Source: an uncultured archaeon (GTDB lineage: Archaea; Asgardarchaeota; Lokiarchaeia; Sigyniarchaeales; Promethearchaeaceae). Taken from it: DNA of 6,200 nucleotides. The first letter of the stretch is position 1, and every line of letters begins with the position of its first letter. Of this stretch, positions 203 through 6,060 are shown in pieces. Location of the stretch: contig CAYRPF010000115.1 of the NCBI GenBank assembly GCA_964426185.1, positions 1 to 6,200 of the forward strand, read 5' to 3'. The notes below the pieces were generated by a model. The model had not been told where the DNA came from, searched no databases, and was given only the letters and a program-made list of their open reading frames with translations. A program made the position numbers and the translations under genes.

Positions 203-361
203 TTAATCAAATTTCGATTTTTTAAAAAAAATTCGATTTATAAATAAGGTAAATGTGAAATTTCTCATTCCATTAAGTAAATGATGTAAATAAATATAGA
301 ATTCTTCTGCAGAAAGGATCGATTTCCAATCCTTTCCAGTGGATTTTTCCTGCTTACTCAT
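203..361 (-). pseudogene. Short ORF, possibly a 5' remnant of a methionine sulfoxide reductase B-like gene
   Basis: The track's TTG start at 424 is unlikely; ATGs at 370 (MDT) and 361 (MSKQEK). MSKQEKSTGKDWKSILSAEEFYI resembles the MsrB N-terminal helix (W-K-x-x-L-[ST]-x-E-[QE]-[FY]-x-[VI]-L-R), but the expected following GTE motif is absent and the tail is low-complexity and AT-rich. Confidence 0.3.
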
Positions 362-506
362 AGTATCCATAATAACTATTCGGAGTAAAAAACAATTTGC
401 TGAATTCTTGAAACTAAAAAGCAAATGATACTTATTTTTCTAAGGTGAAACTTGAAATTTTTTATTGGGTTGCCCGTCTCGGCGTAAAATCTAACCTAAA
501 CAAATC

Positions 507-566
507 AATCCACAAAAAATTTCACAAACGATTTAACAAAGAATTTCACAAAGGATTTCACGAACG
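507..566. repeat. Imperfect 12-bp tandem repeat, 5 units, consensus ATTTCACAAANN
   Basis: AATCCACAAAAA (507-518), ATTTCACAAACG (519-530), ATTTAACAAAGA (531-542), ATTTCACAAAGG (543-554), ATTTCACGAACG (555-566), followed by a partial ATTG. Confidence 0.9.
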
Positions 567-570
567 ATTG

Positions 571-582
571 AAATAAAAAAAA
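571..582 (-). terminator. Oligo-T terminator-like tract downstream of the DUF4956 gene
   Basis: Minus strand reads TTTTTTTTATTT about 30 nt after the tandem TAA TAA stops (613-608). Archaeal intrinsic terminators are U-tracts, but the AT-rich background lowers specificity. Confidence 0.4.
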
Positions 583-610
583 TTAATAATATTAAATGGG
601 CATTGTTTTA

Positions 611-1372
611 TTAGATTTCAGTGGTATTGGCGCCGCTGATTAATTTTACGTCAAAAATCTTAGCTTCAGCCTGTAAATTCGAGATGAGATCTGTTTTAAC
701 TCCGAAATTATCGCCGTCATCTCCACGTTTTAAGAGACTTATCAACTTGTTTTTCTTTTTAAATGTAACCATAAATGATAAGCGGTTTTGGGTTTCGTTT
801 ACGGCATCAATACCTAAAATGGAATATTCTTTCAGGTTCTTGGTAAAAAGGGGGGATATTATAGGACCATAGTCAAAATTTTTATCCACAGTTAACTCCA
901 AGATATCTTGTTCGAAATTTTTCTGACCGAATTGGGTATAATACATGGCAAATATTAATCCACAACCTATTATTGTAAAAATTATGGCCAATGCATAGAA
1001 GCGAACACCGCACGCCATCCCGATTACCATTACAAAGAAAATAAAACCAACATCCCTGGTTTCTTTTACAGCATTTCTAAACCTGACAATTGATAAAGCT
1101 CCTACTAATGTAAAAGCACGGGCTATGTCAGTTCCTACAATTAGCATTACGATCGATACAATTGCTCCCAAAAGGACCAAAGTTTGGGTAAAAGATTGAG
1201 AATAGGACAACCCCTTATGGGTATACCTATATACAACTGCAATTGAAAATGAGAGTAAAATACTCCAGAACAAACAAATCATACCATCTGCAAAAGTCAG
1301 CGAGACCAATTCTGGATTAAACGTTTGGAACGAATCTTCTATAAATTTCTGTATAAATGTTTCTGCAATCAT
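611..1372 (-). CDS. DUF4956 family membrane protein (N-terminal multi-TM domain plus C-terminal soluble alpha/beta domain)
   Basis: Family-typical motifs YRYTHKGLSYSQSFTQTLVLL, GALSIVRFRNAVKETRDVGFIFF and IGMACG; several hydrophobic helices; adjacent to a VTC gene as is usual for this family. Start reassigned to ATG 1372 because the track's GTG at 1381 lies within the AAGGTG ribosome-binding site. Confidence 0.9.
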   Translation of the reverse strand: MIAETFIQKFIEDSFQTFNPELVSLTFADGMICLFWSILLSFSIAVVYRYTHKGLSYSQSFTQTLVLLGAIVSIVMLIVGTDIARAFTLVGALSIVRFRNAVKETRDVGFIFFVMVIGMACGVRFYALAIIFTIIGCGLIFAMYYTQFGQKNFEQDILELTVDKNFDYGPIISPLFTKNLKEYSILGIDAVNETQNRLSFMVTFKKKNKLISLLKRGDDGDNFGVKTDLISNLQAEAKIFDVKLISGANTTEI

Positions 1373-1378
1373 TTTTAG

Positions 1379-1384
1379 CACCTT
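1379..1384 (-). promoter_or_regulatory. Shine-Dalgarno site for the DUF4956 gene
   Basis: Minus strand gaaAAGGTGctaaaaATG, 6-nt spacer. Confidence 0.65.
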
Positions 1385-1427
1385 TTCATTTCATGTTTAT
1401 TTTTTATTTGAATTTTATCAATACTGG

Positions 1428-1441
1428 AAAAAAAAAGAAAA
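1428..1441 (-). terminator. Oligo-T tract between the VTC and DUF4956 genes
   Basis: Minus strand TTTTCTTTTTTTTT beginning about 17 nt after the VTC stop codon. Confidence 0.4.
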
Positions 1442-1457
1442 GCAATTGGTAAAATTT

Positions 1458-2213
1458 TCATACTAAACTCACAGTATGAGTTTTTTGCAACCCATGAGCG
1501 AATTTAGAGACTTTTTCCGCCCGTACATTCTTCACATTCAAGAATTTGGTTGCCCAAATTGGAATTTTGTTGGTAAATTTTACTTCCATAACTACCACTT
1601 CTGGAGGAAGTATAAAATGTGTCCCCGTTCCATTGTGTAAATCGAAATCACATGAACGAACTTGTACTTTGCTGTCAAAGGTAATGCGAAAACGGGGATC
1701 TTTATTGCCTAAAAATGCCTGTCGCTGGTATACAACAACGCAAACGGGATACAAGTGGAATTTACGGTGGAGAAACCAAATCTCTTCCAAAGTGCGACGT
1801 TCTTTGGGAGATAATGAATTAAAATGTAGTGCTGCTTCATTTGAATTTTCATCCATTATCGATTTCCAATTTTGCATTGGGGCAACAATTCGAGATTTGC
1901 TGACATTTTCTCCGAATTTCCGCTTAATCTCCAGAAATACCATCTCATCATTTCCAAAGCTATTTCCATTCATACTACTATTTGGATAATATCTAACTCT
2001 CAGTTTTTTGCGAACGTTTAAGCCGTTTATCTTCTCCTGTAACGCTTTACGAACCGGAGAATCGTAGTAAACACTTCTTACTTCATAATTTATCCCATTG
2101 GATGTATGAGAATCTAAATGCATGAAGTTTTTCAAATACTGAATCATTTTGTCACGCTGGGCTAAGCTGATTCGATATTTAATTTCATACCGGTTAAAAT
2201 ATGTTTGAATCAT
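1458..2213 (-). CDS. VTC-domain (polyphosphate polymerase, CYTH/TTM tunnel fold) protein
   Basis: Motifs in order: RYEIKY, SVYYDS, EKINGLNVRKKLRVRYY, FLEIKRK, KSR, YQRQAF, RITFD, VMEVKF, P-x-W, SKF. No TM segment and no SPX domain. Confidence 0.93.
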   Translation of the reverse strand: MIQTYFNRYEIKYRISLAQRDKMIQYLKNFMHLDSHTSNGINYEVRSVYYDSPVRKALQEKINGLNVRKKLRVRYYPNSSMNGNSFGNDEMVFLEIKRKFGENVSKSRIVAPMQNWKSIMDENSNEAALHFNSLSPKERRTLEEIWFLHRKFHLYPVCVVVYQRQAFLGNKDPRFRITFDSKVQVRSCDFDLHNGTGTHFILPPEVVVMEVKFTNKIPIWATKFLNVKNVRAEKVSKFAHGLQKTHTVSLV

Positions 2214-2216
2214 TTA

Positions 2217-2223
2217 ATCACCT
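2217..2223 (-). promoter_or_regulatory. Archaeal-type Shine-Dalgarno site for the VTC gene
   Basis: Minus strand TGAaaacAGGTGATtaaATG. AGGTGAT is complementary to the 16S 3' tail AUCACCU. Only 14 nt separate the CotH stop from the VTC start, supporting an operon. Confidence 0.8.
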
Positions 2224-2227
2224 GTTT

Positions 2228-4843
2228 TCAATGTTTTTTTGATTGAAAGGCCAAAATCGTTAGTTTTTTTTGTTTCTGGCGGTATCTTTTTTGGAAAATG
2301 AAAATAAGACCGATTAAACAGCAGGTGCTGAAAAGTACCCCCGCAAATAATGAATCCGCGCTGGAATCTTTACCTTCATCAACAATTTCTACATTTTCAC
2401 CACCAGGAGTAGGAATAGGAAGATAATACATCCAAGTCTCGGATCCATCAGGAATTCGACCTTGGGAATAATCCGTAATTGAATCTGCTAAAAATACATT
2501 ATCAATCACGGTTCTTCCATCTGAAGCTAACAATGCCAGTGCTTCTCCCTTTCCACTGAGTTTGAAGTTTGTTTGAAGGTTCTCGGCTGAATTTAGACCA
2601 CTGGCCCAGATAATTAAATATTCTCCAGCCGATAAAGATAAATTGTCAGGAAAGCGCCACAAGGTTGGATCTTCTAAATTATCTGTTAGATAAAGCCCAT
2701 CTAATTCCACCGTTGAATTACCACGGTTATATATTTCAATCCAATCAGCAGTTAATCCACTTGAATAAGGATCTTCTATTGTTTGACTGTTTTCGGCTAA
2801 AACTTCATTAATTACCAAAGTGGTGGGATAGTTTATTTTTGAATCATCCATCTGATTGGAGCTATTTGGAGAAGGATGATCTGTAAACATATACCACTGA
2901 TTTGCACCATCTGGATAACGTCCAAGTGAGTTGTTTGATTTAAGTTGCGAAATATTTACTTGATCTATTTTCACCTCGTTTTCATTTTCATTTTGAAAAA
3001 ATAGGTATAACATCGATTTTTCTGATTCAATTTCAGAAATTTTTAAGGGTATTTGGAATGCAAGTGGGGCACCTGGTTTAAGTTCATGATTATTCCCTGA
3101 ATAATTTCCCACACGCCATTTTAAAGGCTCTGTTAAATCATCAGTTAGGAAAAAAGAACTGATATTTATTATACCAGGGCTGTTATTATAGAGTTCTACC
3201 CAAATTTCTCCATCTGAATCATTGTAATTATCCTCGATCTTGCTAAATCCTATTTCATTAATAATCACCTCGTTCGGATTAGCATAATCTTGAAGCCAAT
3301 TCCTTAAATATGCTTTACGTGTGGTAACAAAATTCTTTAAACCGTATATCAGCATTCTTTGGCTGGAAAGATCTTGAATCAAGTTCGATTCTGAATCCTC
3401 AATGGTAAACAAGGCATTTGGATCTGCCGCTAAATCCGTTTTAATTAAATTCCAATACTTTTCGACCGAAGATTCCATTATATCCCATGAAAAATGATTC
3501 GTTAGTATTTCTGCCATGAAAGTCAAATATATTCTATTATATTCTGGAATTGAAAGCAAATTCTCAATTAATGGCCGGGCATTGGAAAGTTGACCGAATG
3601 GATCTTCTGGGGGATTAATCGGTGGCATGGGTGGATGATTTTCCCCTGCATTTTCTATAACATCTTCATTTTGTATAAAATCTGTCTCGTTTCTAGCACC
3701 TATTGGGAGATCGTTAGTTGTCGAGGTAGGGGTCCAAAATGGGTCTAAATTTAATGGTGTTTCATTTTCATCCAAACCATACGTAAAAGTTCCGAAAGCC
3801 ATATTTGCATCCCATAGAAGAAAAACAAATTGACCTGTGTCTTGACGATGATAGAGATAATAATTATGTGCTGAACCGATATAGGAATCTAAACTGCTGA
3901 AGATGTTTAAAAGTGCCAATGAATAGAGGGTGGAGTTGATATCCAATATTTTTTCAAGATTTTCTTTATAGTCTTTGGTGATATCTTGGTTTAAAGCCTT
4001 AGTTAATGATATTAGGTCGGAATAATCGTTGAACTCTTCGTTATTTTTTAGTTCATATTTACTCGAATACTGATCTTGGGAGTCTCCGAGATATTCTAAA
4101 GTTCCTGCAGTCTCAGCGCGGTAAAGATTTCCATCTTCATGGGATCCGAAGCGACTTTCAAAAAACACATCATCAATTTGTTCCACCACAGTGTAAAATC
4201 CATAATACTCACCATTAATGAAAACTTTAGCAAAACTGCAACGGATGGTGGGAACATACTCATTTGCTACATCCCAAAATATTTTTTCTCTCAACATTGT
4301 GGGATCTGAGAAGCCATTATTTAGATTTAATTTTTGAAGACCGTAGAAGTTGCAACTTTGGTTATATTCATTAAAATCTAATCTAAAAGATTTTTTGGTC
4401 CCACTTTGTTGGAAACTGGAATGACCTTTCATATTAATTCCTATTTCTGCTTCAAAGTCTTGATATTTGAATGTAACGGGAAAATATGGACCCTCCGCAT
4501 CATTTTGATGGGATTGGTATAGAGTATCGTACCAATTTTCGTCCTCAAATTCCAAGAATATTTCATGAATCTGCTCTGAGGCGAAAAATTCATCACTCTT
4601 TTCGAATAAACTGGTTAAGGTGGTGAGATTTTCGAAAACAGTTTGTGTAGCACTTGATTCAGGAGTTTTTATATACTCCTCGGGGGTATTAGTGTTCCAA
4701 AGGGAATTACTAGTCTCAGAATTGAATCCCAAATATTGAATACTATTTAAAAATTGCAGAAAAAACATGAAAATCATAAATAAGGATAAATATACTGCAA
4801 ATCTCCTTATTTTTCCATTTTCTAAAAATGCTCTCGAAGCCAT
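2228..4843 (-). CDS. CotH kinase family protein with N-terminal signal/TM, two lamin-tail domains (LTD) and a C-terminal membrane anchor
   Basis: N-terminal RRFAVYLSLFMIFMFFLQFL. CotH motifs GINMKGHSS, KKSFRLDF, GLQKLNLNN, DPTMLRE, INGEYYGFYTVVEQID, GNLY, DSY..SAHNYYLY, WDANMAFG. Two LTD repeats (IINEI..WVELYN..FLTDD..SLGRYPDG..PSP at about 3270-2860; VINEV..DWIEIYN..YLTDN..SQGRIPDG..PTPG at about 2820-2394). C-terminal TM LFAGVLFSTCCLIGLIFIF followed by the basic tail QKRYRQKQKK. Confidence 0.92.
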   Translation of the reverse strand: MASRAFLENGKIRRFAVYLSLFMIFMFFLQFLNSIQYLGFNSETSNSLWNTNTPEEYIKTPESSATQTVFENLTTLTSLFEKSDEFFASEQIHEIFLEFEDENWYDTLYQSHQNDAEGPYFPVTFKYQDFEAEIGINMKGHSSFQQSGTKKSFRLDFNEYNQSCNFYGLQKLNLNNGFSDPTMLREKIFWDVANEYVPTIRCSFAKVFINGEYYGFYTVVEQIDDVFFESRFGSHEDGNLYRAETAGTLEYLGDSQDQYSSKYELKNNEEFNDYSDLISLTKALNQDITKDYKENLEKILDINSTLYSLALLNIFSSLDSYIGSAHNYYLYHRQDTGQFVFLLWDANMAFGTFTYGLDENETPLNLDPFWTPTSTTNDLPIGARNETDFIQNEDVIENAGENHPPMPPINPPEDPFGQLSNARPLIENLLSIPEYNRIYLTFMAEILTNHFSWDIMESSVEKYWNLIKTDLAADPNALFTIEDSESNLIQDLSSQRMLIYGLKNFVTTRKAYLRNWLQDYANPNEVIINEIGFSKIEDNYNDSDGEIWVELYNNSPGIINISSFFLTDDLTEPLKWRVGNYSGNNHELKPGAPLAFQIPLKISEIESEKSMLYLFFQNENENEVKIDQVNISQLKSNNSLGRYPDGANQWYMFTDHPSPNSSNQMDDSKINYPTTLVINEVLAENSQTIEDPYSSGLTADWIEIYNRGNSTVELDGLYLTDNLEDPTLWRFPDNLSLSAGEYLIIWASGLNSAENLQTNFKLSGKGEALALLASDGRTVIDNVFLADSITDYSQGRIPDGSETWMYYLPIPTPGGENVEIVDEGKDSSADSLFAGVLFSTCCLIGLIFIFQKRYRQKQKKLTILAFQSKKH

Positions 4844-4925
4844 TAGTCATCTACTCTGAATATTTTCTATATTTCTCGATAATTGAATCGCAGTGATAGG
4901 AAATAATTATCTAATAGTGAAAAGC

Positions 4926-4949
4926 GGAAAAAAAGATATAAATGGTTTC
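4926..4949. promoter_or_regulatory. Putative bidirectional archaeal BRE/TATA promoter core
   Basis: Minus strand GAAAccaTTTATAT (toward cotH); plus strand GGAAAAAAAG-ATATAAAT (toward the wHTH gene). Both use the same TATA element at about 4936-4943. Confidence 0.6.
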
Positions 4950-4987
4950 AGAACTTTGGTATTACCTAATAGAACATTGTTCTGAAA
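4946..4987. promoter_or_regulatory. Candidate operator: nested inverted repeats
   Basis: TTTCAGAAC (4946-4954)...GTTCTGAAA (4979-4987) is a perfect 9-bp inverted repeat; also AGAACA-T-TGTTCT (4971-4983) and GGTA-T-TACC (4958-4966). Confidence 0.6.
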
Positions 4988-5017
4988 GATTTCTTTAAGA
5001 GAAGGGATATAATTACC

Positions 5018-5317
5018 ATGGTGACCTCCAAATATCGCTCATCGAATATGATCATATTATCTATATTAGAAGCGATATTTCGTGCAGAACAAGGGCATTA
5101 TTTGACTAAAAAAGGGATTGTGAAATCCCATCTCTTGAAGAGTTGCAAATTGAAGGCTAGCACGGCAGAAAAATACTTAACTAAAATGGAACAAGCAGGA
5201 TATATAGTATCCAGTAAAGAGCCATGGGGTGAAAGGGAAATTATCATCTACAATTTGACAGAAAAAGGAAAAGAACGCTATAGGTGGTTTATGCAAATTA
5301 ATGCGGAATTAGAATAA
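5018..5317 (+). CDS. Winged helix-turn-helix transcriptional regulator (archaeal COG3432 / HTH_45-like)
   Basis: Pattern YRS..II.SIL ... KSHL...CKL...TAEKYL..M..AGYI ... YNLTEKG; 99 aa, DNA-binding domain only; purine-rich GAGAAGGGA upstream of the ATG. Confidence 0.85.
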   Translation: MVTSKYRSSNMIILSILEAIFRAEQGHYLTKKGIVKSHLLKSCKLKASTAEKYLTKMEQAGYIVSSKEPWGEREIIIYNLTEKGKERYRWFMQINAELE

Positions 5318-5376: not shown

Positions 5377-6060
5377 ATGGTTAATGAAAAAAGTGAAATC
5401 GAAAATAATATCCAGCAGAACAGTTTAAAATATCTGCATAATCAAGAAAGGTACCTCTTTATAAGCATTTTGTTTCCAATATATTCCATTATCGTGCAAA
5501 TAGTAAATATAGTATATATAATTAAAATTTTGAAACGTCCCCCTCCTCCCCAACATCCTCCTTTACCGGTACTTGATATTATTACTCCATTTATTGTGTT
5601 TTTAATGATCTCATTATTTGCCCTCATGAAATTCATCTTTTTGATGCTGTTAAGGAAGAAATCCAAAAACGTTCAAAATTATTTTAAGGGGTTGGAAAAT
5701 CAAAATCAAATGAAGGACAATGAAGAACCCAGTAAAATTCCCTCTTTAATCAAAATTTTATATGATTTAATTAAATACATGAATATAGTTAGATTTTTGT
5801 TTTTACTTATTAATATTACATTTGTGTTTTATCTGCAATGGTCAATTAGATTTATTTTAACTTATCTTCACTTAATTCCTCCCGGACCTCTGCCTCCAAA
5901 CTTGGTATTTCACGTATTAAACAGTATTTCAGAGTTTGGTTTATTTATTTACATGTTTTTTGAGTGGCATCATTTCCTACGGTGGAACAAAAAAATTAGG
6001 AAAATTGAACACTTTGAAAAGCTAGTTTTTGATGAAATCAATATAGAAAAAAATAAATGA
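5377..6060 (+). CDS. Hypothetical 4-TM membrane protein with two proline-rich loops
   Basis: Four hydrophobic segments; loops RPPPPQHPPLP (TM1-TM2) and IPPGPLPPN (TM3-TM4); Lys-rich central loop and C-terminal tail; AAGGAG upstream; 59 nt downstream of the wHTH gene on the same strand. Confidence 0.8.
   Translation: MVNEKSEIENNIQQNSLKYLHNQERYLFISILFPIYSIIVQIVNIVYIIKILKRPPPPQHPPLPVLDIITPFIVFLMISLFALMKFIFLMLLRKKSKNVQNYFKGLENQNQMKDNEEPSKIPSLIKILYDLIKYMNIVRFLFLLINITFVFYLQWSIRFILTYLHLIPPGPLPPNLVFHVLNSISEFGLFIYMFFEWHHFLRWNKKIRKIEHFEKLVFDEINIEKNK

Follow-up and report, generated by a model that had tools for sequence, protein, structure and literature searches.

The stretch of DNA considered here, referred to as the window, is an entire 6200-bp contig (CAYRPF010000115.1) of a 3.26-Mb, 155-contig metagenome-assembled genome (MAG) that has 34% G+C, is 92% complete and belongs to a Lokiarchaeial (Asgard) host. 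Positions 4843..611 are occupied by three co-oriented open reading frames (ORFs) on the minus strand, which encode a CotH-family kinase carrying LTD domains (CotH-LTD), then a VTC enzyme of the TTM type, and then a DUF4956 membrane protein. The locus is genuine and shows strong conservation; it adds a new archaeal member to a gene set that was known before and is biochemically uncharacterised. The three genes very probably constitute one functional module. Our tentative reading of the window is that it holds the Lokiarchaeial form of a widespread VTC-DUF4956-CotH envelope module, equipped with its own winged-helix (wHTH) regulator and small membrane protein. The general question behind such a module is how phosphoryl donors are supplied to enzymes outside the cytoplasmic membrane. 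The most economical overall reading, to which we give somewhat less than even credence, is a membrane-bound unit that would make polyphosphate (polyP) and serve chemistry at the outer face. The genes of the trio and their Shine-Dalgarno (SD) sites are:

4843..2228, minus strand: CotH-LTD kinase gene, 871 aa (ORF and Pfam)
2213..1458, minus strand: VTC/TTM enzyme gene, 251 aa (ORF and Pfam)
1372..611, minus strand: DUF4956 membrane protein gene, 253 aa from the ATG at 1372 (ORF and Pfam)
2218..2223, minus strand: SD site AGGTGA, 4 nt before the VTC ATG
1379..1384, minus strand: SD site AAGGTG, 6 nt before the DUF4956 ATG at 1372

The CotH stop and the VTC ATG are separated by 14 nt, and VTC and DUF4956 by 85 nt. 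The ORF finder's call for DUF4956 is 1381..611 with a GTG start, from which the 256-aa numbering of its residues derives. As GTG 1381 falls within the SD AAGGTG (1384-1379), the start is placed at ATG 1372, giving the 253 aa of most close homologues and the 85-nt gap. An earlier sequence-only reading had described three co-oriented genes with these gaps and with SD sites; the ORF coordinates match, SD sites are present at the second and third genes, and a clear one was not seen at the first gene, CotH. Its domain identities are borne out by Pfam matches that all exceed the gathering scores, and the topology it gave, with a soluble VTC, a multi-transmembrane (TM) DUF4956 and an exported, anchored CotH, agrees with hydropathy prediction. 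The 85-nt gap contains a T-run (~1427-1440) and then an AT-rich stretch (window 1427-1457), which may be an internal archaeal terminator or promoter, and DUF4956 is perhaps transcribed partly on its own.

VTC and DUF4956 are almost always found side by side. A DUF4956-side survey covered 80 loci from Actinomycetota, Chloroflexota, Myxococcota, Bacteroidota, Gemmatimonadota, Patescibacteria, Bacillota, Planctomycetota, Promethearchaeota and others. A same-strand VTC ORF, mostly abutting, is present in 77 of them, and two of the three exceptions are cut by a contig end. From the VTC side, a metagenome scan was made with an Asgard VTC alignment, counting contigs with at least 800 nt downstream; DUF4956 comes next after VTC in 29 of 30 such Asgard-type contigs, and the full CotH-VTC-DUF4956 order occurs in 15 Asgard-type metagenomic contigs. 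The VTC and DUF4956 profiles find matches in the same three of 14 control genomes, and CotH in those three and in Bacillus subtilis. Matches to all three families are present in C. glutamicum and in B. thetaiotaomicron. Wherever both were seen in a sample of 201 Asgard genomes, VTC and DUF4956 are co-located. CotH is present in at least 54 of the 80 loci (40 by hidden Markov model, 14 as divergent CotH-beta-helix or LTD-CotH forms). The co-conservation for which the sequence-only reading had proposed a neighbourhood survey is thus found, and its remark that similar gene triads occur in bacteria holds as well, with the pair or trio seen in loci of many bacterial phyla. The three-gene arrangement is not a product of chance, because the locus or its order is carried by four assemblies, 15 metagenomic contigs and two cultured Asgard genomes. 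This linkage gives strong genomic support to DUF4956 as the membrane partner of VTC.

The composition and order of the module vary around this core. Loci from Paenibacillus have a Cthe_2159 carbohydrate-binding protein in place of CotH, and nine Bacteroidota loci have a 370-aa protein whose Pfam matches, to HlyD-like adaptors, are faint and non-significant. A single 526-aa ORF (L055:496-2073) fuses VTC (50-271) to DUF4956 (330-489). It comes from one 2.1-kb MAG contig, labelled Gammaproteobacteria and grouping with Actinomycetota in the tree; because it is a single short MAG contig, and a frameshift artefact is possible, the fusion is weak evidence for the pairing. In a midpoint-rooted tree of concatenated VTC and DUF4956, the loci appear to group largely by phylum, with the Lokiarchaeial loci in one clade in which the two loci of Candidatus Lokiarchaeum ossiferum lie in different sub-branches. 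These two loci are paralogous modules: locus 1 (L008:4533-8768) matches the window and has the wHTH gene, and locus 2 (L006:10001-14505) has the order VTC-CotH-DUF4956 amid GT2, GT4 and beta-helix/NosD genes. The trio is retained in both despite the differing gene order.

The window is a contig of just 6.2 kb within a 155-contig MAG, which raises the possibility of fortuitous adjacency, faulty assembly or a bacterial contig placed in the wrong bin. A near-identical 9.9-kb contig from another assembly extends past the right end of the window into an archaeal gene cluster encoding S19e, L39e, L31e, eIF6, L18Ae, prefoldin, an SRP54-family GTPase (FtsY-like) and SecE; this continuation into ribosomal-protein genes shows that the contig is archaeal and not mis-binned. 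The locus is present at 99% identity or more in four independent assemblies, and the same five genes, the trio together with the wHTH and small membrane protein genes, stand in the closed genomes of L. ossiferum and Promethearchaeum syntrophicum MK-D1. An artefact is refuted by these observations and retains virtually no probability. For each of the three proteins, the nearest relatives with a name come from L. ossiferum, P. syntrophicum and Promethearchaeota MAGs.

The VTC protein matches PF09359 at E 1.2e-39 (136.7 bits, cut-off 23) over profile positions 1-234 of 235. It has a pI of 9.9 and is predicted to be soluble, without a TM segment by hydropathy. A phmmer search of the single sequence against the PDB found nothing, and a profile was required: one built from 33 homologues matches the Vtc4 catalytic domain 3G3Q at E 5.8e-21 and aligns less well to the inactive Vtc2/Vtc3. 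Mutagenesis has defined K200, R264, R266, K281, Y359, R361, S457 and K458 as the Vtc4 residues needed for polyP synthesis; E426 binds Mn, and K458 is the single residue separating active Vtc4 from inactive Vtc2/3 (bioRxiv 10.1101/2023.01.27.525886). In the alignment, K12, R72, R74, K97, Y162, R164, E210, S236 and K237 of the window protein correspond to Vtc4 K200, R264, R266, K281, Y359, R361, E426, S457 and K458. All nine are invariant or nearly so among the 33 homologues, and K237 is invariant. These residues support a catalytically competent enzyme of the Vtc4 type, and it is rather probable that the protein makes polyP. A search of the 92%-complete genome for the classical polyP enzymes PPK1 (PF02503), PPK2 (PF03976) and PPX/GppA (PF02541) found none of them, which leaves VTC as the one candidate polyP synthase, and the one candidate polyP enzyme, seen there.

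Beta-strand 1 of the VTC protein reads R-x-E-x-K (R8, E10, K12) and thus retains one glutamate of the classical ExExK motif, at a position where Vtc4 has T198. This glutamate bears on a different reading, in which VTC would be a TTM triphosphatase or a cyclase-like enzyme, its product or substrate would be sensed by the ACT-like domain of DUF4956, and the two proteins would form a signalling pair controlling surface enzymes. Basic tunnel residues are common to TTM enzymes of diverse reactions (PMC4641920), and in DUF4956 the ACT-like domain adjoins the membrane. However, the VTC profile has active Vtc4 as its best match and lists none of the other solved TTMs at E <=1, and the equivalent of K458, specific to the active polymerase subunit, does not vary. 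We consider a signalling pair improbable.

Like the eukaryotic VTC complex (Vtc4/Vtc3/Vtc1; 3G3Q, 7YTJ, 8I6V), the archaeal pair joins a catalytic tunnel domain to a membrane component; the catalytic TTM domains are homologous, with all nine polyP-synthesis residues in common, and the one prokaryotic fusion is ordered VTC then TM, as in Vtc4. Unlike the eukaryotic proteins, the window VTC is a single 251-aa soluble domain, no DUF202-type TM helices and no SPX domain were found (the SPX search being uninformative), and the membrane partner is MgtC-like with an ACT-like domain. A link from Asgard to eukaryotic VTC was considered and rejected. When equal-sized profiles were compared against Vtc4, the Asgard-only VTC profile scored 45 bits, below the 65.5 bits of the bacterial profile, which is the more diverse of the two; therefore nothing points to an Asgard origin of the VTC complex of eukaryotes. 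The Asgard proteins are not particularly close to eukaryotic Vtc4, which argues against the module as the ancestor of that complex.

The DUF4956 protein matches PF16316 at E 1.1e-17 (64.7 bits, cut-off 30.6), and a search for its family returned 5373 representative clusters at E <=1e-3. Hydropathy predicts 4-5 TM helices. The AlphaFold2 model (pLDDT 89, pTM 0.78) begins with an amphipathic helix at the N-terminus, continues with a helical membrane domain and ends in an ACT-like beta-alpha-beta-beta-alpha-beta domain. The family has an invariant motif, R100/R102/K106/D110, in a loop that would lie on the cytoplasmic face under both the 4-TM and the 5-TM readings. The C-terminal domain resembles the MgtC C-domains (2LQJ/7QA5) at Z 8.3-8.5 and NikR at Z 9.4, so that MgtC is tied with other ACT/ferredoxin-like folds. 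Sub-threshold matches to the MgtC family PF02308 occur in 68 of 70 DUF4956 relatives, with a best E of 4.8e-8; the window protein itself scores 12.5 bits against a cut-off of 31.4. One Atlas cluster mixes DUF4956 and MgtC annotations. The sub-threshold Pfam matches and the fold of the C-terminal domain indicate that DUF4956 is probably a distant relative of the MgtC superfamily, with a TM domain and an ACT-like domain, and not a protein of the Vtc1 type. This assignment agrees with the published reading of the Streptococcus intermedius protein SIR_1592 as an MgtC TM domain plus ACT (mBio 2025, PMC12345266). DUF4956 and the MgtC family (PF02308; Salmonella/Mycobacterium; 2LQJ, 7QA5) would have in common a multi-TM N-domain and an ACT-like C-domain. 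They differ in the invariant R-F-R...K...D motif, which belongs to DUF4956, and in gene linkage, since MgtC lacks linkage to VTC genes and works through its binding to other membrane proteins (PMC12345266).

With the full DUF4956 model, Foldseek gave no PDB match at E <=0.001, and the VIA-wide search matched the ACT-like C-domain only. For a TM-only model (pLDDT 89.4), the top-scoring matches are helical bundles unrelated to it, at Z up to 9.2, below the quoted noise level for helical proteins; no chain of the VTC complex is among the 50 matches listed. The fold search of the TM domain would therefore seem to give no structural reason either to accept or to reject a channel. Complex prediction of DUF4956 with VTC gave a score of 0.00 without control runs, which speaks neither for nor against binding.

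The CotH-LTD protein has Pfam matches to CotH at 4.1e-55 (188 bits) and to LTD at 1.3e-19, both above the gathering score. Its parts are:

nt 4745-4801, minus strand: signal/anchor, residues 15-33, preceded by K11/R13/R14 (hydropathy)
nt 3308-4438, minus strand: CotH domain, residues 136-512 (Pfam PF08757)
residues ~523-663, minus strand: LTD-like repeat 1 (internal LTD repeat)
nt 2495-2824, minus strand: LTD 2, residues 674-783 (Pfam)
nt 2294-2350, minus strand: C-terminal TM segment, residues 832-850, followed by a basic tail with 8 K/R in 21 residues (hydropathy)

The predicted topology is type I, exported and membrane-anchored. The protein matches Bacillus cereus CotH 5JD9 at E 2.1e-14 as a single sequence and at 1.2e-30 as a 35-sequence profile. 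In B. subtilis CotH, substitution of D228 (catalytic) and D251 (metal-binding) inactivates the kinase (Freitas et al. 2020). The B. cereus equivalents of these aspartates are 23 residues apart, as in B. subtilis, and D319 and D345 of the window protein align to them and are invariant in 35 homologues. The window protein and Bacillus CotH (B. cereus 5JD9; B. subtilis) have the same kinase fold family and both catalytic aspartates in common. In contrast, Bacillus CotH has 360 aa and acts on CotB/CotG in the ATP-containing mother cell, whereas the window protein has 871 aa, is exported and membrane-anchored, carries LTDs and comes from a non-sporulating archaeon. Given this archaeal chromosomal context and the predicted export and anchoring, the spore-coat role on CotB/CotG does not extend to it; it is a member of the family and not a functional equivalent of spore-coat CotH. 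A literature search found no paper treating CotH together with L. ossiferum in substance.

At 40-44% identity, CotH-LTD proteins occur commonly among Planctomycetes, Acidobacteria and Bathyarchaeia, and CotH was not seen in about a third of the VTC-DUF4956 loci. Together with the glycosyltransferases that surround L. ossiferum locus 2, these facts favour a reading in which CotH-LTD serves chiefly for binding or structure at the surface, or acts as a stand-alone glycan kinase, and its adjacency reflects a shared surface-polymer island rather than a shared pathway. That reading sits poorly with the invariance of both catalytic aspartates, with the retention of the trio while its flanks change completely across three Lokiarchaeial genomes, and with the return of the same gene order in the 15 metagenomic contigs; we hold it to be distinctly unlikely. 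In another Asgard genome of the same order (G141:C2:288413-303655), four CotH paralogues of ~430 aa lie around an adjacent VTC-DUF4956 pair, and a fifth lies elsewhere.

The trio is in print as a set of accessory genes of Gram-positive pel loci (Whitfield et al. 2020, bioRxiv 10.1101/768473; S. intermedius SIR_1594/1593/1592, mBio 2025, PMC12345266), and it is listed in C. perfringens NELoc-2. In the pel accessory module as in the window, genes for a CotH that is exported, a VTC-like cytoplasmic enzyme that has catalytic residues and a TM protein ending in an ACT-like domain are contiguous. In the window, however, the host is archaeal, CotH carries two LTDs and is anchored at its C-terminus where the pel protein has FN3, and the trio is accompanied by a wHTH and a small membrane protein. 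The surroundings differ as well. No pel genes (pelDEADAFG) or DUF4832 are present in the gene tables of the window locus, L. ossiferum and MK-D1; the flanks hold ribosomal-protein genes here and unrelated genes in the other two. The authors of the mBio 2025 study did not find the trio outside pel loci (PMC12345266), whereas in all three Lokiarchaeial loci it lies outside them; the flanks of the bacterial-phylum loci with the pair or trio were not screened for pel genes. The sequence-only reading knew of no functional characterisation of such triads, which is nearly right: a literature search found no biochemical report on any prokaryotic VTC-domain protein, although gene deletions exist for S. 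intermedius.

In the mechanism that we propose, the cytoplasmic VTC and its membrane partner DUF4956 would act as a unit that polymerises phosphate from nucleoside triphosphate at the inner face of the membrane. The polymer, or its phosphoryl groups, would feed chemistry at the outer face, where the anchored CotH-LTD kinase would modify a surface glycan or protein. A membrane-bound polyP unit is the most economical reading because it joins the VTC-DUF4956 core, the extracytoplasmic third partner and the competent VTC residues in a genome in which no PPK1, PPK2 or PPX was found. Where it has been identified, the third partner is extracytoplasmic: CotH, or the Cthe_2159 protein in Paenibacillus. 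In eukaryotes, VTC passes polyP into a compartment that in topology lies outside the cytoplasm (see bioRxiv 10.1101/2023.01.27.525886). The VTC product might cross the membrane with the help of DUF4956, a step that is possible and which we regard as doubtful. Use of that product by CotH as a putative phosphodonor is improbable. We give equally little credence to the reading in its fullest form, in which VTC-DUF4956 would be a polyP synthase-translocase equivalent in topology to eukaryotic VTC, built with an MgtC-type subunit, powering CotH-type ectokinases at an ATP-free outer face and serving as the sole polyP-making system here. If it is true that VTC-DUF4956 exports polyP, the pair would represent a new way of supplying cell surfaces with energy and phosphate.

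Several observations weigh against a polyP-exporting unit. DUF4956 is related to MgtC, whose known role is that of a membrane regulator rather than a channel. No DUF202 (Vtc1-type) match was obtained in the DUF4956 protein at E <=1, and none to DUF202 (PF02656) in the 92%-complete genome; an SPX search of the genome also gave no match, although it is uninformative, having been silent in every control genome. Of the proposal in the sequence-only reading that DUF4956 supplies a missing channel, the membrane partnership is borne out by genomic linkage, and the channel is unsupported, with the MgtC kinship, the lack of DUF202 matches and a fold search at noise level. Its further proposals, polyP export and polyP as donor for CotH, are likewise unsupported. 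The CotH ectodomain is strongly acidic (pI 4.2), and no CotH-fold kinase is known to use polyP. The T-run and AT-rich stretch between VTC and DUF4956 leave the co-transcription of these two genes open. The module is also rare, with VTC in 7, DUF4956 in 6 and CotH in 3 of the 201 Asgard genomes sampled. In S. intermedius, deletions of DUF4956 and of CotH lowered aggregation in artificial sputum by more than 50%, and no such defect was reported for the VTC deletion (mBio 2025, PMC12345266).

The main rival assigns DUF4956 a regulatory role. It holds that DUF4956 is an MgtC-like regulator whose ACT-like domain would sense a small ligand and which would tether or control VTC, that the VTC product would stay in the cytoplasm as a phosphate or energy buffer, and that CotH would work outside with another donor, the genes being linked by regulation and by a common purpose, surface remodelling. 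In its favour are the MgtC-family sequence signal in relatives and the MgtC/ACT-like C-domain, the reading of SIR_1592 by the S. intermedius authors, their suggestion in the preprint that polyP may stay cytoplasmic, and the VTC deletion without a reported aggregation phenotype. Tight transcriptional control is also indicated, both by the OmpR-type response regulator and histidine kinase that lie beside the module in 31 of the 80 loci and by the wHTH here. On the other hand, a cytoplasmic product leaves unexplained why VTC is almost never without DUF4956 and why the third partner, in loci where it was identified, is extracytoplasmic. The PPX that would mobilise a cytoplasmic store was not found in the genome, and free cytosolic polyP from a VTC-type enzyme is toxic in yeast. 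A cytoplasmic product with DUF4956 as a sensor or tether is thus possible, if on the unlikely side.

Beyond the trio, the module of the window includes two further genes and a shared intergenic region:

5018..5317, plus strand: winged-helix regulator (HTH_45/HTH_34, Sso10a-like), 99 aa, divergent from CotH (Pfam, NCBIfam)
5377..6060, plus strand: 227-aa membrane protein (3-4 TM), downstream of the wHTH gene (hydropathy)
4844..5017, no strand: divergent intergenic (promoter) region between CotH and wHTH, containing an inverted repeat
4946-4987, within this region: perfect 9-nt inverted repeat TTTCAGAAC (4946-4954) / GTTCTGAAA (4979-4987), as TTTCAGAAC-N24-GTTCTGAAA

L. ossiferum (locus 1, NEF87_000436-438) and P. 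syntrophicum MK-D1 have the identical five-gene arrangement in their closed genomes, with wholly different surroundings. The wHTH orthologues in L. ossiferum locus 1 and MK-D1 show 66-68% identity, making this protein the best conserved of the five, and the 227-aa membrane protein has orthologues of 39-46% identity at the same position. The latter has no Pfam family, and the Atlas gives just an unnamed Promethearchaeota cluster. The AGAAC...GTTCT cores of the inverted repeat are invariant in an alignment with L. ossiferum and MK-D1 (L008:4366-4532; L009:4364-4531), and the repeat is a candidate operator of the co-conserved wHTH. The pair formed by the wHTH and the small membrane protein is absent from L. 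ossiferum locus 2 and from 45 metagenomic Asgard-type loci, and is confined to a subgroup. This five-gene unit, with its wHTH, small membrane protein and conserved inverted repeat in both cultured Asgard strains, is new here and is the most useful new aspect of the locus. Both cultured Asgard archaea have the module together with its regulator and the candidate operator, which makes it amenable to study in living cells.

At the other end of the window, a 73-aa minus-strand ORF (424..203), for which a family was not found, is preceded by a tandem array of about five 12-nt units at 511-569. The array lies upstream of this ORF and just downstream of the DUF4956 stop and its T-run; its consensus is CACAAACGATTT on the plus strand and TTTGTGAAAT-like on the minus strand.

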